From Polyangia bacterium (lineage in GTDB: Bacteria > Myxococcota_A > Polyangia > Fen-1088): DNA of 64,000 nt. The stretch spans positions 678 through 64,677 of the forward strand of contig DASZRT010000069.1 in NCBI GenBank assembly GCA_035549075.1. Reading direction: 5' to 3'. This document shows, piece by piece, positions 29,947 through 39,705 of the stretch (position 1 is the first letter of the stretch; each line of letters begins with the position of its first letter). Both the position numbers and the translations under genes were made by a program. Under the pieces are notes generated by a model that made no database searches, was not told the DNA's origin, and saw only the letters and a list, made by a program, of their open reading frames with translations.

Positions 29947-32900
29947 TCAGCGGAACGTCACGCGGACGGTGTGGGTCGCGCCGTCGCCCAGGTCGACGCG
30001 CAGCTGGTACGCGCCGCGCGCGAGCGCGTGCGTGTCGAGCAGCAGATCATAGGTGCGGAGCAGCGGGATGAACACGAAGTTGTCGCCGAGGAACGGCGGC
30101 AGGGCGTGGGCCGGCTGCTCGGCGCCGACGTGGCCGGCGGCGTCGACGGGCGCGAGGAAGAGCTTCGCGGGGAAGTCGGCGATGCCGGCGCAGCCGCCCG
30201 CGAGCGTGAAGCGCACGAGCAACGGAAGCGGCCGGTAGAACACCGACGAGCCGTCCTCGTCGATCGGCTGCAGGAAGTGGCCGAACGAGACGAGGACGCG
30301 CACGAGGAACGAGCCCGTCGAGCGGTTGCCCGTCGCGTCCGTCGCCGCGCAATTCACCTTGGTGTCGCCGAGCGGGAATTGCGCGCCCGAGGCCGGCGCG
30401 CACGAGACGCTCGGGTGCGGGTCGGTGTCGTCGGTCGCCGTCACGTGGTACGTCACGCGCGCGCCGAGGCGGCTCGTCGCGGGCACGACGATCGTCGCCG
30501 GTAGGGAGAGCACGGGCGGCCGGTTGTCGGCGACCGAGACGACGAACGTCGCGGGCGCCGTCGTGTTGCCGTGGTGGTCGGTCGAGGTGCAAGTGACGAG
30601 AGTCGTGCCCACGGCGAAGAACGAGCCCGACGGGTGGTCGCACGTCACGGGGTCTGCGCCGTCGACGACGTCGCTCGCGCACGTGGCGAAACTCACGACG
30701 CTGCCGCCTGGGCTGCTCGCGAGCACGTGGACGTTGGTGAGCGGGCACAGCGTCGGCGGCGTCGTGTCGCGCACCGTGACGGGGAAGCTCGCTGACGTCG
30801 TCTGTCCCGCGGCGTCGGTGGCGGCGCACACGACCTCGGTCGTCGTGTCGAGCGCGAACAGCGCCGGCGACGCGGGCGCGCACTCGACGGGCAGCGGGCC
30901 CGTGACGACGTCGACGGCCGACGCCTCGTAGCTGACGACGGCGCCGAGCGCGCTCGTCGCCTCGGCCACGATGGGGCCGGGCACGGTGACGACGGGCGGG
31001 CCGTCGACGACGTCGACGCCGAAGAGACCGAGGCCGACGGCGCCCGTCCCGGGATCGATCGCCTCGCAGAGGACCGTCGATTGACCGATCGGGAAGGTCG
31101 CGCCCGAGGGCAGCCGGCACGACAGCGCCGCCGGCTTGTCGTCGATCGTCGTCGCCGACGCGTCGTACGTGACGGGCGCGCCGTCGGGGCTCGTCGCGTC
31201 GACGGTGATGGAGCCAGGCGTGTGCACCGTGGGCGCCTTCGAGGGATCGCCCTGCGTCACGCCGACGAGCGTCGGATCGGACTCGCAGCTCTCCGACCAG
31301 CCGCCCCCCGCGCGTGAGTCGAGCACCTGCGAGATGCGCAGCGGGTGCCACCCCGGCGGCACGTCGAGCGTCATGCTCCAGTCGCCGTTGGCGTCGGCGC
31401 GCGCCGTGAAGGTGCGCTGGCCGTCGCGAACGACGACGTCGGCGAACGGCTGCGCGCAGGACGGCGGCGGCGCCGCGACGACCGAGGCGCAGCCGGCGGC
31501 GCCGAACTTGATCGGCCCCACCTGCGTGATCACGCCGTTCGGCGCGATCGGCGGCAAGGGCAGGCTCGGCGGGCGCACGTCGATCTCGAGGCGGCTCGTG
31601 GGCGTGTTGGCGAGACTCGCGAAGGCGCGGAAGTGGGCGTCGATCTGATCCGGCGTCGAGCCCGCGGGCGGGTCGGGCGCCTGGAAGAAGTACACGAGGT
31701 GCTTGCCGGGTGGCAGCGAGACGCCGCCCTGGAACGAGAACGTGCCGTCGGGCTCGGGCGTGTCGTTCACGCCGAGATCGCGCGAGACGACGCGCAGGCC
31801 CACGTGGCCCGTCTCTTCGTAGATGCGCAGCGGCCCGAGCACGGCCTGCGCGTACGGCAGCGAGCCCGTGACGTGCACGAACTGCCCGTCGTTGCCGGCG
31901 GGCGTGCACGAAGGCTCGGCGCCCGAGCGTGGGAACGTCACGGTGGGCGGGCGGATGCCGACGCTCACGAACACCGGCGCGCTGCCGCCGGGCGAGCCGC
32001 ACGCGGCCTTCGAGAACACGAGCTTATGCCAGCCCTTGTTCGGGTCGGACGCCGACCCGGCCGACAGCGTGATGACGTCGTTGATCTTGCCCGTGCCGTC
32101 GGCGGTGACCGTGGGCGTGAGCGTTGCGCCGCCGCCGAGGTCGCACACGTTGACGACGCCGGGCGCCGCCGTGCCCGTGACGGCGAACGTGTCGTCGGCG
32201 GGGTTCGGGCTGGCCGTCGGGTCGCGCGGCGACGTGATGACGGGCGCGTCGGGAGTGGCGGGCGCCGCCGCGGTGACGACGACGGGCCAATCGATCGACG
32301 CGCTCACCCCGCAGAAGGGTGCGGGCGGCGCGACGCACGGATCGCTCGCGAACGTGCGCTGCGTGAACGAGAGCGTGTGGTTCCCGTACCCCGAGACCGG
32401 CACCGTGCCCGAGAACGTGCCGTCCGACGCGATCGACAGCACCGAGCCCGGCGCGCCGTCGACGAGCACCTGCACCGAGCCGCCGACGACGCCGCCGATG
32501 CCCGACACGGCGACCTGCGGCGCGACGCCATAGACGGTCGAGCCGTTGCGCGGCGACACGATCGCGGGCGGCGGCGGTGTGGCGCGCGTGCCGTCGTCCG
32601 GCGCCGCGAGCACGTCGACGACGGCGAGGCCGTTCGCGCCGACGGCGGGCGCGAGCGAGAGATCGGCCGTCGGTCCGGCGGCGAGCGGCGTGTCGAGGTC
32701 GGGCTTCGTACCGTTCGACTTGGTCGCGAACGAGACGACGTTGAGGCCGGCGCCAGCGTTCGCGGGCGTCGCGGGCGGGTACAGCGCCGACCACGGCACG
32801 ACCTGGCGGAGCTGGCTCGCGCTCGCCCACAGCAGCTGGGCCGTGCGATCGCTCGTGCTGTTCTGGATCTCGACGTGGATGGGGTAGTGCACGCCCGCCT

Positions 32901-35793
32901 GCAGCGCGATCGTGACGCTCTTGCGCTGCTGCGTCGTCGGGATCGGCACCGGCGTCGTGCACGTCTCGTGGCAGATCGTCTTGACCTCGGCGATGCACTT
33001 CGCGTCCCACTCGGGCTCGGTCGAGTAGTACGAGAGGTAGCCGCCGTCGCAGCAGAACGGATCCTGCGCGCAGATGGCGTCGACGCACGAGTCGCAGGCG
33101 TGGATGATGCCCGTGCTCGCGGCGAGCTTGGGCCCGAGCGCGCAGATGTCGTGGGGGCACGCGGGCGCGAGCGGCGCGCCCACGGCGACGGGCGGCAGCA
33201 GCGACGTGCTGCCCACGGTGAGCGCGGCGTCGCCCGCGGCCGTCACCGTGAAGGTGTACGTCTCCGAGTACGTGGGGACGATCTCGCCGTCCCACTTCGT
33301 CGAGTAGTTGGGCGTCGCGATGCCCGAGGGCAGCGTCGTCGTCGCCGAGAGATCGATGCCGGGATCGACGCGCGTCATGGGCGTGCCCGCGAACGCGAGG
33401 CCCGGGTAGTAGGTCGCGAGCAGGCCCGTGCCGCCGCCGGGGCCGACGCGGTAGAGCGCGCCCGACGGGATCGCCGACGGCGACAGCGCGCCCGGCGTCT
33501 GCCACGTGAGGCCGGGCGCCGTCGGATCCACGGGCGTCGTCGCCTGGAAGCGATCCCAGCGGATGTCGTATTTGATGCCCCGGACGAGATCGATGGTGCC
33601 GCTCGTCGGGCCCGGGCCGTCCCACCAGTCGACGAGCTTCTGGCCGTTCACGAAGACGCGGCTCGGCTCGACGCCCGCGGCGAAGGTGTACGTGCCCGTC
33701 GCGGGCGCTTCGATCCAACCCGTGAGCACCTGCGCGAACGCGCGGTCGTCGGCCGCGGCCGAAGCGCCGGTGGGCGTGCACGTTTCGGCGGCGGCGGCGC
33801 ACGCGTCGGTCCAGGCCGTCGTGCAGCAGCTGCCGAGGCCGCTCTTGGCGCAGACGCTGGCGGCGCACGCGCTGCACGAGGCGTCGAGCGCGTCGCCCAC
33901 GTCGTGCTCGCCGTGGGCGCACGTCGGCACGCGCACGATGCCGTTGCGCAGCAGCGTGGGCGGCGCCTCGGGGCCGTCGGCCGTCGCCGTGTCGAGCGCG
34001 TAGACGAACACGTCGCCGGACGTGCTCGCCGGCAGCGTGAACGAGAAGCCGTGGCGAGCCGTCGTGAGGCCCGCGCCGTCGCAGGCCGTCGCGACCTCGC
34101 CCGCGAGCGGCGCCGCGAGCGCGAGGTCGGCGTAGGTCGTGCCGACGAGCGTGCCGCCGTGCTCGCGCGGGCCCGTGTAGATCGCGACGGCGACGGCCGC
34201 GCCCGGCCACTCGGGATCGCACGCCCAGCCCGTCACCGTCGCCGAGGTGCCGCTCGTGCTGACGCCGTCGACGCGATCGACGGCGCCGCCCGGACCGATG
34301 AGGTACTTCTGCGGCGCGGGCGCCGGGCCCGTGACGTCGCGCGGCCATACGCGCCCCGGCTGCCACAGCGGCCCGCCGCCGTCGACGACGTCCTGGCAGA
34401 CGTGCTGCCGCTTGTCGACGCAGGCCGCGTTCCACACCGGCTGCGGCAACGTCGGATCGGCGCTGCAGCACTGGGGCATCTCGCGGCACACGGCCGTCGT
34501 GCACGGGCTGCAGTCCCACGGCAGCGCCTCGCCCGTCTGCGACTCGTCGTGCGTGCAGTAGTTGCCCGAGAAGATCTCGACGCGCGGCGTGTTCGTGAGC
34601 GGGTTCGCCCAGCGACCGTCCTCGAAGTGGTCGCGCTCGAGCCGGTCGATCGACGCGAAGCTGTCGCACGCGTTCTCGGGCGCGAGCTCGCGGTAGCGCG
34701 TGCGCTGCAGCGCCGTCGCGTGCAGCGTCGGATCCGACGCCAGCGGATCGAACGACACGAAGTATTCTTGCGCGAGCATCCACTGCGAGTCGGGCACGGC
34801 CGGGTTCCAGGGGTTCTGGATCGTGTTGGGCCAGATGAATTGTCGTGTGTCGAACAGATCGACCAGCGTGCCGTTCTTCGTGAAGCTCTGGCGGTCCTGG
34901 CAATATCCGGCGCGCGCCGCGATCTTGCAGACGTCGTAGAACGGCTTGAGCGGGAATTCCTTCTCGACCCAGCTCGACGAGGGATCGTCGTAGAACCACG
35001 TCGTGTCCGTGCGCCAAGGGCGGAAGCCCCAGATGCGCGCGCACTTCGCGGCGACGCCCGTCGCCGTGCACGCGAAGATGAACTTGTTGGGGTTGGCGGG
35101 ATCCTCGGCGATTGCCATCGCCGTCGCGCCGCCCGTCGCGTCGTGGTACGGGCACAGCGACGCCCACTGGCCGCTCCACTTGTAATAGAAGTAGACCTCG
35201 TACAGCTGCACGTCGTCGTTGATCTGGTCCGCGGGGCGGTGCAGGAGGTTCGGCACGGGATCGGCCTCTTCGCCCGCGATGTAGAGGTCGAGATCGTCGG
35301 CGGGGTTTCCGGCCGCGTCGACGAGGTGAGCCGTCGCGTAGTGGCCCACGGCCGTCTCGCCGCCCACCGAGATGTAGCTGCCCGCGCCCGTGCTCATGCC
35401 CGGGTTCGCCGTCAGCTCGACGGGAACGACGCCCGAGTCCGACGTCAGCCCCCTGATTTCGACCGAGCCGATGTCGACGCCTTTGAGGCTGCTTCCGACG
35501 ACGTCCGTTCCCAAGACGGGAACGCCTTGAACGAGCGAGCCCTGGACCGAGAGCCCCTGAACCGAGAGGCCTTGAACGGACAGTCCCTGGACGGAAAGTC
35601 CCTGGACCGAGAGTCCCTGGACCGAGAGGCCTTGGACGGACAGTCCCTGGACGGAAAGTCCCTGGACCGAGAGTCCCTGGACCGAGAGTCCCTGGACGGA
35701 CAAGCCGGCGATCGCGGCGCTCGGAGCCGCGATCAACAACACCACCAACCACGTCGCGGGCCGTTTGCCCCTCGTCCAAGAAGGTCTTTTCAT
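29947..35793 (-). CDS. giant secreted surface protein: signal peptide, 12x GLSVQ pentapeptide repeats, Cys-rich domain, PA14-like domains, multiple C-terminal HYR (hyalin repeat) domains
   Basis: ATG at 35793 with a GGAG RBS. Signal MKRPSWTRGKRPATWLVVLLIAAPSAAIA. Repeats (GLSVQ)x12. PA14-like segment YTFAAGVEPSRVFVNGQKLVDWWDGPGPTSGTIDLVRGIKYDIRWDRFQ. HYR-like blocks, e.g. PPVVTVPGPIVAEATSALGAVVSYEASAVD...CAPASPALFALDTTTEVVCAATDAAGQTTSASFPVTV, repeated about 5-6 times. Confidence 0.8.
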   Translation of the reverse strand: MKRPSWTRGKRPATWLVVLLIAAPSAAIAGLSVQGLSVQGLSVQGLSVQGLSVQGLSVQGLSVQGLSVQGLSVQGLSVQGLSVQGSLVQGVPVLGTDVVGSSLKGVDIGSVEIRGLTSDSGVVPVELTANPGMSTGAGSYISVGGETAVGHYATAHLVDAAGNPADDLDLYIAGEEADPVPNLLHRPADQINDDVQLYEVYFYYKWSGQWASLCPYHDATGGATAMAIAEDPANPNKFIFACTATGVAAKCARIWGFRPWRTDTTWFYDDPSSSWVEKEFPLKPFYDVCKIAARAGYCQDRQSFTKNGTLVDLFDTRQFIWPNTIQNPWNPAVPDSQWMLAQEYFVSFDPLASDPTLHATALQRTRYRELAPENACDSFASIDRLERDHFEDGRWANPLTNTPRVEIFSGNYCTHDESQTGEALPWDCSPCTTAVCREMPQCCSADPTLPQPVWNAACVDKRQHVCQDVVDGGGPLWQPGRVWPRDVTGPAPAPQKYLIGPGGAVDRVDGVSTSGTSATVTGWACDPEWPGAAVAVAIYTGPREHGGTLVGTTYADLALAAPLAGEVATACDGAGLTTARHGFSFTLPASTSGDVFVYALDTATADGPEAPPTLLRNGIVRVPTCAHGEHDVGDALDASCSACAASVCAKSGLGSCCTTAWTDACAAAAETCTPTGASAAADDRAFAQVLTGWIEAPATGTYTFAAGVEPSRVFVNGQKLVDWWDGPGPTSGTIDLVRGIKYDIRWDRFQATTPVDPTAPGLTWQTPGALSPSAIPSGALYRVGPGGGTGLLATYYPGLAFAGTPMTRVDPGIDLSATTTLPSGIATPNYSTKWDGEIVPTYSETYTFTVTAAGDAALTVGSTSLLPPVAVGAPLAPACPHDICALGPKLAASTGIIHACDSCVDAICAQDPFCCDGGYLSYYSTEPEWDAKCIAEVKTICHETCTTPVPIPTTQQRKSVTIALQAGVHYPIHVEIQNSTSDRTAQLLWASASQLRQVVPWSALYPPATPANAGAGLNVVSFATKSNGTKPDLDTPLAAGPTADLSLAPAVGANGLAVVDVLAAPDDGTRATPPPPAIVSPRNGSTVYGVAPQVAVSGIGGVVGGSVQVLVDGAPGSVLSIASDGTFSGTVPVSGYGNHTLSFTQRTFASDPCVAPPAPFCGVSASIDWPVVVTAAAPATPDAPVITSPRDPTASPNPADDTFAVTGTAAPGVVNVCDLGGGATLTPTVTADGTGKINDVITLSAGSASDPNKGWHKLVFSKAACGSPGGSAPVFVSVGIRPPTVTFPRSGAEPSCTPAGNDGQFVHVTGSLPYAQAVLGPLRIYEETGHVGLRVVSRDLGVNDTPEPDGTFSFQGGVSLPPGKHLVYFFQAPDPPAGSTPDQIDAHFRAFASLANTPTSRLEIDVRPPSLPLPPIAPNGVITQVGPIKFGAAGCASVVAAPPPSCAQPFADVVVRDGQRTFTARADANGDWSMTLDVPPGWHPLRISQVLDSRAGGGWSESCESDPTLVGVTQGDPSKAPTVHTPGSITVDATSPDGAPVTYDASATTIDDKPAALSCRLPSGATFPIGQSTVLCEAIDPGTGAVGLGLFGVDVVDGPPVVTVPGPIVAEATSALGAVVSYEASAVDVVTGPLPVECAPASPALFALDTTTEVVCAATDAAGQTTSASFPVTVRDTTPPTLCPLTNVHVLASSPGGSVVSFATCASDVVDGADPVTCDHPSGSFFAVGTTLVTCTSTDHHGNTTAPATFVVSVADNRPPVLSLPATIVVPATSRLGARVTYHVTATDDTDPHPSVSCAPASGAQFPLGDTKVNCAATDATGNRSTGSFLVRVLVSFGHFLQPIDEDGSSVFYRPLPLLVRFTLAGGCAGIADFPAKLFLAPVDAAGHVGAEQPAHALPPFLGDNFVFIPLLRTYDLLLDTHALARGAYQLRVDLGDGATHTVRVTFR
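35523..35706 (-). repeat. 12 tandem 15-bp repeats encoding (GLSVQ)n at the mature N-terminus of the giant surface protein
   Basis: Visible periodicity ...gagagtccctggaccgagaggccttggacggacagtccctggacggaaagtccctggacc... Codon wobble positions vary but the peptide unit is conserved. Confidence 0.85.
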
Positions 35794-38423
35794 TTTTCTT
35801 CTCCAGCGGTCGCGCACACGCGAACACCCGTCGTCGAGTCTCGAAGCGTCCTGGTCACCGGCTCGCGATTCGTGCTCCTCGCCGAGACCGAATTGAAGTA
35901 GTAAGCGCCACCTCGGATCACGAATTCGCCCCGAGTTTGCGACGACACGGCGAACTCGAGGACGTTGCCGGCCAAGTCGTCGATCCCAAAAGGACTTCGC
36001 GAGCCCGGGTGAGATCCGACGGCGTCAGGTCCGTAGGCGGACTCGACGCGGCCGTACGAGATGTCGAAGTTGGCGTCGTCGGGGGCGATCTCGTCGCCGT
36101 TCGGAAAGAGCCGATCATCGGCGCCGCGCGCCGCGCGCTCCCATTCGACCTCGTCGCACAGCCGTGCGCCGGGAACCCTGCCGGACGAGCGCAGCCACGC
36201 CAAGTACTCTTCGACGTCGGCGAGGGAAACGCCTGCCACTGGAAACTGCAGCCAGTTCTGCTTCGCCAAGCGCTGACGGCCGACGTAGACGAACGGTTGG
36301 CCCGACCTGACAGCATATCTGTGGGACGCCGTGCCGAGACTGAATTGCCAGCCGTCGCCGACCTGGCGAAGCGTCACCGACCCGTGCGTGGTCGCCGCAC
36401 CGTCGGGCAAGTGACGTCCACGGTCATTCGGCGGCAATGCCTCGAGGAACGCGATCCACTCCCGGTAGGTCGTCTCTGTACGCGCGATCAGAAACGCTGG
36501 CACATGCCTTCGATGGATCGGTACCGTTCCGAGGAACTCCGTGCGGAGTTGCTCGTCCGCGTCGCCGAACCACGATTCTCCAGCAGGTACGTAGACCATT
36601 CCTTCGGGAACGATCCGCGCTGTTGGCAGCACGACGTCGACGGTCTGGTGAGCGGGGTCGCCGCGCCTCAGCTCGAAGGGAACGATCAAATCCGCGAACC
36701 CCGTGGCGCGTGCGACGACGCGGTACGAACCGGCCTCGAGGTTCAGCGTGGTCGTCGGCGGTGCGAACCCGGGCACGGGCGCCCACAATCCACGTGGCGC
36801 CGCTTGGTCGCGGTAATGACGTTCGAGAGAGAGAGTCGTCGACGGCGGAGAAACGTGCAGCCCCACCGTGAACGGCTCGGAGAGCCGTTGCTTCCACGTC
36901 CCTCCGGCGTCAGTCGAAACGAGCTTGGCGCTCGCTGTCTTGATCTCGTCCGTGAGATGCAGGTCCTGCGTGAGCGCCAGTTTGTCGGCAAGGACCTCGA
37001 GCAGGCGCGAGCGGGCGATTTCGCGGCTCGGATCGAGGACGAGCGCTGCCTCGAAGGCCTGCGTGGCGGCGTCAAATGAGCCAAGGATCGGCGGCACCAT
37101 CGCGCGTGCCGCTTTCCAGAGGGCCTCGCCCTCGTCGCGATCCATCGCATCGAACGCCGCGAAGGCGCGCGTCCTCATCGCTTTCAGGTCGTCGACCTTC
37201 TTGGCCGTCGATTGCGCTTCCGAGTTTCCTCTCTCGATCTGCTCGGCGACGCTGCGTTCGACGTCTTCGTGGCGCCTGCGCGCCGCGTGCAGGACGGCGA
37301 GCGTTGCTCCCACGAGCACGAGCGTGACCGCACCAATCGTGGTTCGCCGTCGTCGCGCGACGGCTGGGTCGTCCTCGAGCGCCGAGATGAGCGCGGCCAT
37401 CGATGGGTGACGAGCCTGGCGATCGGTCTGAAGCCCGCGCAAGACGACGCGGCGAATCCAACCGGGGACGTCGCGCTCCTTCGGCAGCGCGCGAAGGTGA
37501 CCGTTCGTCACGCTCACGGAGAGCGCGACGAGCGTGTCGCCGTCGAAGGGTCGTTGGCCGTAGAGCGCCTCGTACAGAGCGACGCAAAAGCTGAACTGGT
37601 CCGTGCGCTCGTCGGTGGGCTCGCCCAAGAACTGTTCGGGCGCCATGTAAGCCGGCGTGCCCATGAGCGCGCCCGTGCGTGTGAGCTTGTCCAGCTTGTC
37701 CGACGAGCTCAGATCGACGTTCGTCGGCAAGTTCGGGTCGAAGCGAGGCGGCGGGTGCGAGTCGGAGGCTGCGTCGTTCGCGGGCACGGCTCCATCGACA
37801 TCGGAGACCGCGCGTTCGAGCGCGCCGGCGCTCTCGAGCTCGATCTTGACCGCCTCGACGTTGCGCGCGAGGCCGAAGTCGACGACGCGTGCACGCCCGT
37901 CCTTGTCGAGCAGCACGTTGTCGGGCTTGAAGTCGCGGTGAACGAGCCCCTCGGCGTGCGCTGCCGCGAGCCCGCGCCCCGCCGCCGCGAAGACGGCCAC
38001 AACCTCGCGCCACGAACGCGTCGCTGATTCGAGCCAAACGCGGAGCGTGCCGCCCGCTAGAAATTCTGTCGCCAGGAAGACGCGATCATCGTCGGTCACG
38101 CCGACGTCGTGCACGGCGGCGACGTTCGGATGAGACAACCGCGCCATGGCCTTCGCTTCGCGCATCATTCGCGCTCTTGCGAGGGGCGCCGCGCCCGCAC
38201 CGACGCCGCGCAGAATCTTGAGAGCGATCTTGCGATCGAGCTCGGGATCATAAGCGCCGTAGACGACGCCCATCGCCCCGGTCCCTACGCGCTCGAGGAT
38301 GACGTAGCGGCTGACGCGAGCGCCAATCGCAAGGTCGGGCTCGTGCTTTTCGACGGAGCCTTCGGCTCGGTTTCCCCGCACTCTTTCCCCCGGGAGCGGC
38401 GGAGTTGGTTTCTTCGTAGTCAA
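35790..38423 (-). CDS. Ser/Thr protein kinase fused to C-terminal FGE-sulfatase (formylglycine-generating enzyme-like) domain
   Basis: Kinase motifs GTGAMGVVYGAYD, HRDFKPDNVLL, DFGLAR and APEQ. C-terminal FGE-like motifs (GNVLEFAV...IRGGAYY, VRVCA). The stop codon overlaps the ATG of the giant adhesin gene (ATGA at 35790-35793). Confidence 0.85.
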   Translation of the reverse strand: MTTKKPTPPLPGERVRGNRAEGSVEKHEPDLAIGARVSRYVILERVGTGAMGVVYGAYDPELDRKIALKILRGVGAGAAPLARARMMREAKAMARLSHPNVAAVHDVGVTDDDRVFLATEFLAGGTLRVWLESATRSWREVVAVFAAAGRGLAAAHAEGLVHRDFKPDNVLLDKDGRARVVDFGLARNVEAVKIELESAGALERAVSDVDGAVPANDAASDSHPPPRFDPNLPTNVDLSSSDKLDKLTRTGALMGTPAYMAPEQFLGEPTDERTDQFSFCVALYEALYGQRPFDGDTLVALSVSVTNGHLRALPKERDVPGWIRRVVLRGLQTDRQARHPSMAALISALEDDPAVARRRRTTIGAVTLVLVGATLAVLHAARRRHEDVERSVAEQIERGNSEAQSTAKKVDDLKAMRTRAFAAFDAMDRDEGEALWKAARAMVPPILGSFDAATQAFEAALVLDPSREIARSRLLEVLADKLALTQDLHLTDEIKTASAKLVSTDAGGTWKQRLSEPFTVGLHVSPPSTTLSLERHYRDQAAPRGLWAPVPGFAPPTTTLNLEAGSYRVVARATGFADLIVPFELRRGDPAHQTVDVVLPTARIVPEGMVYVPAGESWFGDADEQLRTEFLGTVPIHRRHVPAFLIARTETTYREWIAFLEALPPNDRGRHLPDGAATTHGSVTLRQVGDGWQFSLGTASHRYAVRSGQPFVYVGRQRLAKQNWLQFPVAGVSLADVEEYLAWLRSSGRVPGARLCDEVEWERAARGADDRLFPNGDEIAPDDANFDISYGRVESAYGPDAVGSHPGSRSPFGIDDLAGNVLEFAVSSQTRGEFVIRGGAYYFNSVSARSTNREPVTRTLRDSTTGVRVCATAGEEK

Positions 38424-38523: not shown

Positions 38524-38733
38524 CTAGGACGCGCAGCTCAGCCGACGGTTGTGCTGGGGGCTGAGGCCGCCGGCCTTGACGGAAGCGCGAACCTTGAGGG
38601 CGCGGTTGTGCTGGGGGCTGAGGCCGCCAGCCTTGATGGAGGCGCGGACCTTGAGGGCGCGGTTGTGCTGGGGGCTAAGGCCGCCAGCCTTGATCGTCGT
38701 CTTGATCGCGAGCGTCGTCTTCGTCGTCTTCAT
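38524..38733 (-). CDS. small basic tandem-repeat peptide (69 aa; Thr/Lys-rich N-terminus followed by 3 x 19-aa repeats IKAGGLSPQHNRALKVRAS)
   Basis: ATG at 38733 with an AGGAG RBS 5 nt upstream. Codon usage matches the host (AAG, ACG, CTC, GCC, CGC). The opposite-strand ORF would require a TTG start and rare TTG/AGG/CGA codons. Three 57-bp DNA tandem repeats. Confidence 0.5.
   Translation of the reverse strand: MKTTKTTLAIKTTIKAGGLSPQHNRALKVRASIKAGGLSPQHNRALKVRASVKAGGLSPQHNRRLSCAS
38547..38700 (-). repeat. three tandem 57-bp repeats inside the small peptide gene
   Basis: ggttgtgctgggggctgaggccgccRgccttgaYggaRgcgcgRaccttgagggcgc repeated 2.7 times, encoding IKAGGLSPQHNRALKVRAS units. Confidence 0.85.
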
Positions 38734-38769
38734 GGGAGTCTCCTAGTTGTGGGTGGGTGGGTGTTTCGT

Positions 38770-39705
38770 TCATGGTTGGGTAATCGCCGCGAGGGCCTCG
38801 GGCGCTCGCTGGAAGCGGGCGGCGGGCTCGCGTTCGAGGCAGCGCAGGATGGCGCGCTCCCAGCGGACGTCGAGGTCGGGGCGGATCGTGCGCGGGGAGG
38901 GCGCGGCCTCGCGGAAGCGCTTGAGCGCCATGACGGTGATCGAGCTGCCCTTGAACGGCAGCTCGCCCGTGAGCATCTCGAACAAGACCACGCCCAGGGC
39001 ATAGACGTCGGTCGCGGTCGAGATGGGTTGCTTGCCGGCGGCGACCTGCTCGGGGGCCATGTAGAGCGGCGTGCCGACGGCCTCGCCGGTGATGGTGATC
39101 GAGATGTCGTCGAGGGCCGAGCGGCGGGCGAGGCCGAAGTCGGTGATGACGAGGCGCGGGGTCGGGCGGATGTCGACGTCGGGGACGAGCACGAGGTTTC
39201 CGGGCTTGAAGTCGCGGTGGACGACGCCGGCGGCGTGCGCCGCCTCGAGGCCGGCGACCATCTGGCGCACGAGCGGCAGGGCGTCCTCGACGGAGAACCG
39301 CGTGCGCGACGCGAGCTCCTCGGCGAGCGTCGGCCCGCGCAGCAGCTCCATCGTGATGAAGACGAGGGGCGGTCCCTCGCCGTCGTCGTGCTGGCCGACG
39401 TCGAACGTGCGGCAGACGTTCCGGTGGGTCACGCGGCGCGCGAGCTGAATCTCGCGGCGGAAGCGCTCGACGGGGACGGCGTCCTCGGCGACGATCTCGC
39501 GCAGCGTCTTGAGGGCGACCGCCTCGTGGAGCAGCTCGTCCTCGACCTCGTAGACCTCGCCGACGGCGCCGGCGCCGATGAGTCGCGTCACGCGGTAGCG
39601 GCCGGCGACGCGCTCGCCCTCGAACAGACGTTGGTCGAGCCGATTGCGGCGAGGGCCCGGGGGCCCGTCAGCCGGCGTGCGGTCTTCCTCGTCTATGCCG
39701 GCCAT
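38770..39705 (-). CDS. Ser/Thr protein kinase, catalytic domain only (311 aa)
   Basis: GAGAVGEVYEV, VALK, HRDFKPGNLVL, DFGLAR and GTPLYMAPEQ. No regulatory or TM domains. Confidence 0.8.
   Translation of the reverse strand: MAGIDEEDRTPADGPPGPRRNRLDQRLFEGERVAGRYRVTRLIGAGAVGEVYEVEDELLHEAVALKTLREIVAEDAVPVERFRREIQLARRVTHRNVCRTFDVGQHDDGEGPPLVFITMELLRGPTLAEELASRTRFSVEDALPLVRQMVAGLEAAHAAGVVHRDFKPGNLVLVPDVDIRPTPRLVITDFGLARRSALDDISITITGEAVGTPLYMAPEQVAAGKQPISTATDVYALGVVLFEMLTGELPFKGSSITVMALKRFREAAPSPRTIRPDLDVRWERAILRCLEREPAARFQRAPEALAAITQP

Follow-up and report, generated by a model that had tools for sequence, protein, structure and literature searches.

A predicted tandem-repeat peptide gene of a Polyangia bacterium and its family in soil bacteria, linked to receptor Ser/Thr kinases

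In Firmicutes, the three-component circuits ComC/ComD/ComE with ComAB and PlnA/PlnB/PlnCD rely on a small ribosomally synthesized peptide that carries a Gly-Gly some 15-25 residues in and has a hypervariable mature region. A membrane sensor kinase and a transcription factor are encoded beside the peptide gene, which has a dedicated promoter, and the peptide leaves through a C39 ATP-binding cassette (ABC) exporter that may be encoded at another locus. Class II microcins and NHLP/Nif11 precursors are likewise marked by a Gly-Gly (or G-A, G-S) site, by arrays of paralogous small-precursor genes and by a neighbouring C39 exporter. Here we compare with these systems a minus-strand gene for a 69-amino-acid (aa) repeat peptide, located at 38524..38733 of a 64,000-nucleotide (nt) stretch from a Polyangia bacterium (GenBank assembly GCA_035549075.1, contig DASZRT010000069.1, positions 678 to 64,677; the whole stretch is hereafter called the window). 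By sequence comparison, the gene belongs to a large family of strongly basic tandem-repeat peptides, so far unannotated, in soil bacteria. Genetic linkage connects the genes of this family with a single clade of receptor Ser/Thr kinases and with two alternative dedicated promoter systems, and some of them also with C39 exporters. In their logic, the three-component peptide-pheromone and class II bacteriocin circuits, together with class II microcin and NHLP-type export, are the closest described systems: the traits listed above have counterparts among loci of the family, in several of which the exporter is a pair with the peptidase on one subunit.

The family also departs from these systems at several points. 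In comparison with the ComC and PlnA circuits, its sensor would be a receptor Ser/Thr kinase of the Hanks type, bearing a TPR or FGE ectodomain, instead of a histidine kinase, and its regulator would be a sigma factor resembling the extracytoplasmic function (ECF) type (TIGR03001), or a sigma-54 promoter, instead of a response regulator. Ahead of its Gly-Gly lies a basic, strand-like stretch that does not fit the canonical leader pattern, its units stand in tandem arrays of up to 11, and its hosts are Polyangia, Acidobacteriota and other diderm lineages. In comparison with NHLP/Nif11 precursors and microcins, the neighbouring exporters score far under the family cutoffs (158-189 against 853 bits), no nitrile-hydratase-like or Nif11-like leader was seen in the window peptide and six relatives, and a canonical microcin signal is absent. 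In the loci, unlike in microcin clusters, genes for a membrane fusion protein, for immunity or for tailoring were not recognised, and the products would be far shorter than 5-10 kDa if every Gly-Gly site were cut. Because a defining feature of double-glycine leaders is missing, the regulators are of another kind and the precursor is a tandem array, we do not file the family under any named peptide family. Cyanobactin PatE, yeast alpha-factor and plant peptide-hormone polyproteins share with it the tandem alternation of a conserved processing or recognition sequence with a short variable peptide, and a copy number that varies; there is no homology to them and no heterocyclase, macrocyclase or Kex2-type protease, and the likeness is one of logic only.

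The window gene encodes MKTTKTTLAIKTTIKAGGLSPQHNRALKVRASIKAGGLSPQHNRALKVRASVKAGGLSPQHNRRLSCAS, 69 aa followed by a stop codon, with a predicted isoelectric point of 12 and a net charge of about +14; coordinates and protein agree with those in an earlier note on this DNA. The first start codon of the open reading frame (ORF) is an ATG at 38731-38733 (minus strand), and the ribosome-binding site AGGAG, also pointed out in the earlier note, stands 6 nt before it (38740..38744, minus strand) with a C/A-rich stretch ahead. C/A-rich tracts followed by GGAG are likewise found upstream of other family members. The GC content of the ORF is 0.57, 0.54 and 0.91 at codon positions 1, 2 and 3. Its relative codon adaptation (0.59) is far above that of the two antisense ORFs (0.25 and 0.17, one starting with TTG and the other with GTG), in agreement with the sense frame that the note preferred; nine confident neighbouring genes reach 0.70-0.84. 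Identical DNA is present in two independent read-set assemblies, the window matching contig CAZPSI010000003.1 (GCA_964589105.1) without difference over the 20 kb compared, and the ORF is called as a gene there. A scan for sigma-70 promoters and terminators around the peptide gene returned nothing informative.

At the DNA level, Tandem Repeats Finder places a 57-bp repeat at 38546..38694 (2.6 copies, 94% matches, score 263), which is the coding repeat in nucleotide form. The protein is laid out as 15 + 19 + 19 + 10 + 6 aa, with two full 19-aa copies that differ by I/V and a 10-aa partial copy ending in AGGLSPQHNR. The formula of three perfect 19-aa repeats proposed earlier has to be amended, because three such copies would make 78 aa and not 69; what stands is the threefold occurrence of KAGGLSPQHN, a string that the window does not contain at any other place. 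The two full DNA copies differ at four nucleotides, three of them synonymously in the minus frame. In the register of the family, alignment and unit statistics give the peptide three units on the minus strand, at residues 7-25, 26-44 and 45-63. Unit 1 (38659..38715; TLAIKTTIKAGG + LSPQ + HNR) is degenerate and also serves as the leader-like N-terminal part; it is followed by unit 2 (38602..38658; ALKVRASIKAGG + LSPQ + HNR) and unit 3 (38545..38601; ALKVRASVKAGG + LSPQ + HNR). The first K-A-G-G ends at residue 18, and the single Cys lies in the C-terminal tail RLSCAS (38527-38544, minus strand), after which comes the stop codon. The segments KVRAS[I/V]K at residues 28-34 and 47-53 are identical or nearly identical to the N-terminus of ribosomal protein L36 (MKVRASVK). 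Homology to L36 was considered and rejected, the match covering 7 residues with sub-threshold rpmJ scores, and we treat it as convergence of a basic strand.

Relatives of this peptide are numerous. A word-indexed search returned 24 small homologues, all made of repeated LKVRxxVKAGG units with a few further residues and NH[N/S/T]R. When 1.84 billion cluster representatives were searched with a profile built from 17 members, 2,159 of them matched at E<=1e-3, of which 580 also passed E<=1e-10. Homologous small ORFs, whose absence from relatives together with a lack of expression the earlier note would have counted against the gene, are therefore abundant. Related loci were gathered with a degenerate DNA pattern demanding two units, which gave no match in 100 shuffles of the window. 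This pattern recovered 13 stretches from species-representative genomes, every one a metagenome-assembled genome (MAG), from Polyangia, Bryobacterales and other Acidobacteriota, Thermoanaerobaculia, a Candidatus Kuenenia MAG and others, as well as 89 metagenome contigs. The collected set comprises 93 non-redundant loci and 104 distinct peptides of 2-11 units each. Pfam and NCBIfam scans of the window peptide and six diverse relatives yielded sub-threshold noise alone (RTC, YebC, L36, DAP, FwdC), and a PDB sequence search gave a single match, to the DotG/IcmE repeats (E=3e-4), which are AGF-rich with a period of 10 and match by composition. The cluster look-up of family members returned only the name 'hypothetical protein', and no description of the peptide family was found in the open-access literature searched by motif strings and by concept.

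The anatomy of the units is well defined. Relative to the K of KAGG, the consensus reads G(-8) L K V R [S/T/A] [A/G/S] [V/I] K-A-G-G. This amphipathic, basic framework is followed by a core that is 3-4 residues long in 328 of 374 units, and then by N (339) or Q (35), by H, by N (248), S (83) or T (28), and usually by R. The 374 units contain 188 distinct cores, built from hydrophobic or small residues (L, S, T, A, V, G, I, F, P, N, M, W) with hardly any charged ones. Across the family, K+R make up 19% of residues, H 4.5%, D+E 1.3% and Cys 0.2%, and the charge is about +4 per unit. The final unit is atypical in many peptides (L007, L033, L047, L081, L089), where K-A-G is followed by a residue other than Gly, a 6-8-residue core, often with Cys, and a hydrophobic tail, as in VKAGQTIMSPNHNLRAR and VKAGYNCMKNHSARLLVVA; the window peptide instead ends in a normal KAGG unit and RLSCAS. 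Copy number varies, as the earlier note had predicted: the window peptide has 3 units and its closest homologue, P0001 (73% identity), has 2, while near-identical peptides differ by whole units in L029/L069/L076 against L077, L058 against L080, L012 against L093 and L075 against L024.

Adjacent units within genes differ by 220, 174 and 487 nucleotides at codon positions 1, 2 and 3, respectively. In framework codons we counted 0.174 synonymous and 0.078 non-synonymous differences per codon, and this synonymous excess therefore indicates that the framework is under purifying selection. The core after KAGG is hypervariable by the same measure, since its codons show 0.10 synonymous against 0.31 non-synonymous differences, and it is unlike that of the neighbouring unit in 58 of 112 adjacent pairs. 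Codon-position bias and the opposite behaviour of framework and core together rule out a non-coding repeat. A spurious ORF lying over such a repeat might have been suspected from a short, repetitive frame in a GC-rich genome, where long spurious ORFs are common, but amino-acid conservation extends across phyla with synonymous drift, the gene has a ribosome-binding site and good codon usage, and related genes have dedicated promoters. Moreover, a search of the locus against Rfam and its RNA folding gave no match and no significant structure (fold z-score -0.34), and the orthologous arrangement of a kinase gene followed by the peptide gene keeps the ORF intact at 27% protein divergence. As far as sequence analysis allows, a spurious ORF is excluded, its probability being vanishingly small. 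The window ORF is by these signatures a genuine coding gene, and the frame-independent repeat that the earlier note had named as the outcome against it can be set aside, given the codon-position differences and the 2,159 profile matches.

The same regularity could suggest a structural protein, in which the 19-21-aa units would form strand-turn-strand rungs of a beta-solenoid, an amyloid-like fibre or a cationic coat, much as the repeats of curli CsgA or HET-s do, stabilised by Asn/His ladders and with the variable residues placed in a turn. Unit length and the Gly/Asn pattern are compatible with CsgA/HET-s beta-solenoids, and so are the alternation of polar and hydrophobic residues, the invariant Gly-Gly turn, the conserved Asn-His-Asn, the presence of 2-11 units per peptide and the loop-like tolerance of the variable patch to substitution. 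Nevertheless, AlphaFold2, run with three units on a shallow alignment of 17 sequences, returned the window peptide as a low-confidence coil with no strands and no fold (predicted local distance difference test 54, predicted template modelling score 0.11). The four positive charges stacked on each rung, with D+E at 1.3%, disfavour in-register stacking; in addition, single-unit genes occur, the peptides have no Sec signal, and no curli-like or Fap-like secretion machinery is found nearby. The sole PDB match, DotG, reflects composition and a period of 10. A structural role is thus very improbable in our judgement. A pentapeptide-repeat fold was also considered and rejected, there being no period-5 hydrophobic pattern in the unit consensus and the DotG match being compositional.

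To describe the genomic context, 342 flanking ORFs were clustered and annotated with Pfam and NCBIfam. A Ser/Thr kinase is encoded within two genes of the peptide in 33 of the 93 loci; of the 38 loci that span 4 kb or more, 26 contain a kinase or TPR protein, mostly with the order kinase-transmembrane (TM)-TPR. The link to kinases that the earlier note drew from the window alone is thus borne out across the family. These kinase genes lie mostly on the strand opposite to the peptide gene, divergent or convergent. Among the peptide-linked kinases longer than 700 aa, including that of the window, 18 of 24 have a predicted TM helix at the threshold used, and in 17 of these 18 the helix falls at about residues 250-650, directly behind the kinase domain and before the TPR or FGE region. 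We read the peptide-linked kinases as receptor kinases with an extracytoplasmic domain.

In the window, the minus strand carries in order a glycosyltransferase, a Kir-like K+ channel, a 311-aa kinase, the peptide, a kinase-TM-FGE-sulfatase protein and a secreted protein of 1,948-1,956 aa. The 311-aa protein (38770..39705, minus strand) is a soluble Ser/Thr kinase that consists of the kinase domain only (Pkinase, E=9e-44). Its gene shares the strand of the peptide gene and stops 36 nt upstream of it, which makes co-transcription of the two the simplest reading and a probable one; its similarity to the other peptide-linked kinases is generic (31-40%). On the other side lies the receptor Ser/Thr kinase gene (35790..38423, minus strand), whose product combines a kinase domain, one predicted TM helix at about residue 363 and an FGE-sulfatase-type ectodomain, as judged from Pkinase and FGE-sulfatase matches. 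Its start is probably at 38381, and the gene begins 100-142 nt beyond the peptide gene. The protein shares 46-51% identity with kinases that adjoin family peptides elsewhere (320-407 aligned residues, E 1e-93 to 1e-105). Since this exceeds the generic 31-40%, we place the window receptor kinase in the peptide-linked clade, with an FGE ectodomain replacing the TPR region, and its sequence makes it the likely cognate partner of the window peptide.

The order seen in the window recurs in two related loci. At the P0036 locus, where the peptide has the same 'QHNR' core type, the peptide gene is followed by a 921-aa kinase-FGE gene and then by one for a 2,634-aa protein. The contig of P0001 (L114) carries the C-terminal part of a kinase orthologous to the 311-aa protein (74% identity), with the peptide gene 92 nt on. 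Within the window, the kinase-FGE gene (35790-38423) differs from its surroundings in composition, with a GC content at third codon positions of 0.79 and a codon adaptation of 0.39, compared with 0.94-0.97 (in those measured) and 0.70-0.84. Together with the intermediate value of the peptide gene (0.59), this low codon adaptation may point to recent acquisition of the module or to domain shuffling.

Two promoter systems accompany the peptide genes. A TIGR03001 sigma factor ('Myxococcales family 1'; 188-205 bits, cutoff 154.6) is encoded in 25 of the 93 loci, and in 25 of 25 its gene is adjacent to and co-directional with the peptide gene, on either side of it and with a gap of at most 168 nt. 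Of 75 peptide genes, 31 (in 28 of the 93 loci) are preceded by a canonical sigma-54 promoter, TGGCAC-N5-CTGC (strict search pattern TGG[C/T]..-N5-[C/T]TGC), mostly 47-73 nt before the ATG. The sigma-54 promoter and the TIGR03001 sigma factor never occur in the same locus. Gibbs sampling returned a 26-nt motif, CGCrGCGCGTCc..AAATGTGgATGA, with its best match 96-109 nt before the ATG in 20 of 20 non-redundant sigma-linked genes. The score exceeds 16 in 17 of these 20, while no sigma-54-type locus exceeds 4.4, and the only other high scorers are four contigs with no sigma gene in view. DUF5916 proteins are encoded in 10 loci and FHA-domain sigma-54 activators in 5. In the presumed 5' untranslated region of sigma-linked genes (L039, L052, L012, L042), a GC-rich hairpin, a C/A-rich tract and GGAG are found about 30-60 nt before the ATG; the window gene has a C/A-rich tract (CACCCACCCACCCACAAC) without the hairpin. 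A third regulatory context, besides kinase-sigma and sigma-54, is seen in L113:1-2647, where two tandem peptide genes with K-C-G-G and K-G-C-G variants follow two paralogous genes for GerE/LuxR-type regulators.

Direct phosphorylation of an ECF sigma factor by the adjacent Ser/Thr kinase has been established for PknT/EcfP of Vibrio parahaemolyticus and PknS/EcfK of Xanthomonas citri, and the lineages found here are among those known for kinase-linked ECF groups (PMC7826278, PMC8999054). A kinase or TPR protein is in view in 11 of the loci with a TIGR03001 sigma factor, and the combination of a TM Ser/Thr kinase with an ECF-like sigma factor in these 11 loci, with no recognisable anti-sigma factor, resembles the ECF43 systems to which PknT/EcfP and PknS/EcfK belong. 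The family differs from ECF43 in that its sigma factor belongs to TIGR03001 and in that the co-directional gene always encodes a repeat peptide, which is undescribed for those systems. The window differs further, having the kinase and no TIGR03001 sigma factor.

These associations bear directly on a reading raised in the earlier note, in which the gene would encode a precursor of a ribosomally synthesized peptide modified after translation (RiPP), with repeated cores and kinase-dependent tailoring, either by phosphorylation or by phosphorylation and elimination. The arrangement of a recognition sequence and a variable core does resemble multi-core RiPP precursors, and kinases flank the peptide gene, as a Ser/Thr-kinase-type domain stands beside a small repetitive peptide gene in class III/IV lanthipeptides. 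The kinase domains also give weak, generic LanL/LanKC scores (34-103 bits against cutoffs of 575-650), and the FGE-type superfamily includes enzymes that modify peptides or His, with EgtB and SenA as weak matches (E ~1e-5). In contrast to class III/IV lanthipeptide synthetases, the window kinases consist of Pkinase by itself or joined to FGE-sulfatase and carry neither a lyase nor a cyclase domain; S-x-x-S-x-x-x-C type motifs are absent, and the only Cys of the window peptide sits in its tail. Tailoring enzymes of any kind, lyases, cyclases, radical SAM and YcaO proteins among them, do not recur across about 100 loci, the cores often have no Ser, Thr or Cys, and the FGE domain lies beyond a TM helix, with TPR in its place in most relatives. 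Receptor topology, and the co-occurrence of the kinases with sigma factors or sigma-54 promoters, are the reasons why we read the kinases as regulators or receptors and not as RiPP tailoring enzymes. A kinase-tailored RiPP is on balance improbable, and the lanthipeptide-like logic raised earlier is not supported for the family.

The evidence for export comes from related loci. Pairs of ABC exporter genes, one subunit of each pair with a C39 peptidase domain, adjoin peptide genes in L001, L013, L028, L106, L116 and L118, on the same strand as the peptide gene in several of them. The linked C39 domains keep the catalytic Cys (QxxxxDCG) and His (HF[VI][VI][VA]W), and the best NCBIfam matches of the exporters are NHLM_micro_ABC1 and ABC2, at the low scores given above. 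In L116 (432-9002, a forest or soil metagenome), the exporter pair is accompanied by a six-unit peptide gene, a gene for a 405-aa TPR protein whose N-terminus shows neither a signal peptide nor a TM segment, and a further seven peptide genes, each of one to three units and differing in their cores, which gives the locus the appearance of a precursor 'library'. A single-unit gene of this locus, MTIKTNVKAGGLTVQHNESFRR (MTIKTNVKAGG-LTVQHNESFRR), looks like a leader, a Gly-Gly and an 11-mer. In most of 79 peptides, the first KAGG ends at residues 16-24. K-A-G is followed by G in 355 of 391 cases, with A (11), V (6) and S (6) as the commonest alternatives, and published double-glycine sites tolerate G-[G/A/S] (PMC12219008). 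P0200, a 167-aa protein on a 1.4-kb metagenome contig, combines KAGG/NHN repeats with a canonical double-glycine leader, ELSDKDLEQAAGG, and an unrelated 29-aa C-terminal peptide. Of the alternatives that the earlier note had listed, a secreted basic peptide is the best supported, given the C39 ABC exporters that adjoin related peptide genes.

We therefore favour, at a probability of roughly 45%, the reading that the window gene encodes a multi-unit precursor that is regulated, exported and processed. The peptide would be made only when a dedicated signalling pathway is active. At the head of this pathway would stand a receptor-type Ser/Thr kinase, in the window the downstream kinase-TM-FGE protein, which would control transcription through the ECF-like sigma factor or, in the sigma-54 class, through FHA-domain activators; the kinases would thus regulate or sense the peptide and not tailor it. 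A peptidase-containing ABC transporter would then export the peptide and cut it at K-A-G-G. With the Gly-Gly sites as processing sites, one precursor would give several short NH[N/S/T] peptides whose cores may differ; the window precursor would yield LSPQHNRALKVRAS[I/V]KAGG twice and LSPQHNRRLSCAS once. Cleavage at KAGG is favoured because of the position of the first site, the near-invariant Gly-Gly with Ala or Ser as substitutes, and the single-unit genes. For the window organism we infer this cleavage, as well as export, control by the kinase and an extracellular function, from the family as a whole.

Several observations weigh against this reading. None of the 79 peptides, and not the window peptide either, fits the canonical leader pattern M...[R/K/E/Q/I]-x-[I/L]-x9-G-[G/A/S] (PMC12219008). 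In the same 79 peptides, the stretch before Gly-Gly is hydrophobic at -5, -9 and -11 and not at -4, -7 and -12; it is basic (-4, -8, -10), where canonical leaders are acidic and helical, with acidic residues reaching at most 3% (at -13) over positions -1 to -15. No C39 ABC exporter was found in the 64-kb window and one would have to be encoded elsewhere, while across the family an exporter is visible in only about 10% of loci, most contigs being short. The window also yielded no TIGR03001 sigma factor or sigma-54 activator in its 64 kb, and no sigma-54 promoter near the peptide gene, even with 2 mismatches. Finally, the difference between cores in 58 of 112 adjacent unit pairs suits a single specific pheromone poorly.

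The main rival keeps the peptide in the cytoplasm. It would act there as a multivalent substrate, pseudo-substrate or scaffold of the adjacent kinases and tune signalling to the sigma factor or to FHA activators, the basic unit or the Thr-rich N-terminus docking to the kinase or being phosphorylated by it. A kinase is indeed the commonest neighbour; Sec signals are absent from the peptides, and at most loci no exporter is seen. In 272 of 374 units, Ser or Thr occupies position -3 from the K of KAGG, in a basic K-V-R-[S/T] context, and Thr runs stand at many N-termini. FHA-domain sigma-54 activators are present in five loci, and in the window the kinase-only soluble protein lies directly upstream, a pairing kept in L114. 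Nonetheless, Ala occupies -3 in 92 units, and some members have units without any Ser or Thr (L047), so that phosphorylation of each unit cannot be the conserved logic. A cytoplasmic role would leave unexplained the hypervariable uncharged core, the invariant His, the near-invariant Gly-Gly, the C39 operons and the eight-gene array, and the TPR or FGE domains of most of the kinases lie beyond a TM helix and hence outside the cytoplasm. We consider a cytoplasmic substrate or scaffold unlikely, if still a serious competitor.

If the favoured reading of an exported and processed precursor is adopted, the role of the released peptides has to be considered. We lean modestly towards an extracellular signal that would feed back on the ectodomain of the receptor kinase, because the peptide gene with its own promoter, the adjacent sensor kinase and transcription factor, and an exporter that may be encoded elsewhere match pheromone circuits; the system would then be a counterpart of the ComC/ComD/ComE and PlnA circuits built on a Ser/Thr kinase. 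The ectodomain of the kinase fits a ligand-binding role. A cationic antimicrobial role would be our second choice, and the diversity of cores within single precursors and gene arrays looks more like a bacteriocin or RiPP-type library. In its fullest form, the signal reading would describe a circuit of diderm soil bacteria, assembled from eukaryote-like parts, in which NH[N/S/T] peptides cut by a C39 exporter are sensed by the TPR or FGE ectodomain, the kinase phosphorylates the sigma factor or FHA activator, and this in turn acts on the peptide's own promoter, with the core setting specificity and copy number setting dose. The complete circuit is a speculative and rather improbable extension.

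Beyond the receptor kinase, the module of the window may extend to the giant secreted protein of 1,948-1,956 aa (29947..35817, minus strand), which domain matches assign ADYC, PA14 and HYR domains. Its gene starts with an ATG that overlaps the kinase-FGE stop codon (ATGA) and possibly belongs to the same transcription unit. Directly after its signal-peptide-like N-terminus lies a (GLSVQ)n run, encoded by a 15-nt tandem repeat of 10.5 copies (a 60-nt super-unit of 2.7 copies, 95% matches) at 35540-35702 on the minus strand. A second peptide of the family was not found within the window, nor was a DUF5916 protein.

Of the hundreds of Hanks-type Ser/Thr kinases that myxobacteria and Acidobacteria encode, almost none has, to our knowledge, been assigned a ligand or an output, and we know of few cases in which the outputs of kinase-linked ECF sigma factors have been established. 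The family described here offers an abundant and easily synthesised candidate, a small peptide gene coupled to one kinase clade, to two promoter types and sometimes to a cleaving exporter. It has been missed by Pfam, by NCBIfam and by the published double-glycine leader patterns tested, and its processing site departs from the canonical leader. Should the peptides be exported signals or antimicrobials, they would constitute a new and widespread class of bacterial peptides from poorly cultured soil phyla, and if they are ligands of the receptor Ser/Thr kinases, this would be signalling of a sort not yet described in bacteria. If their function is intracellular, the family would still provide a well-defined handle on signalling from kinases to sigma factors.

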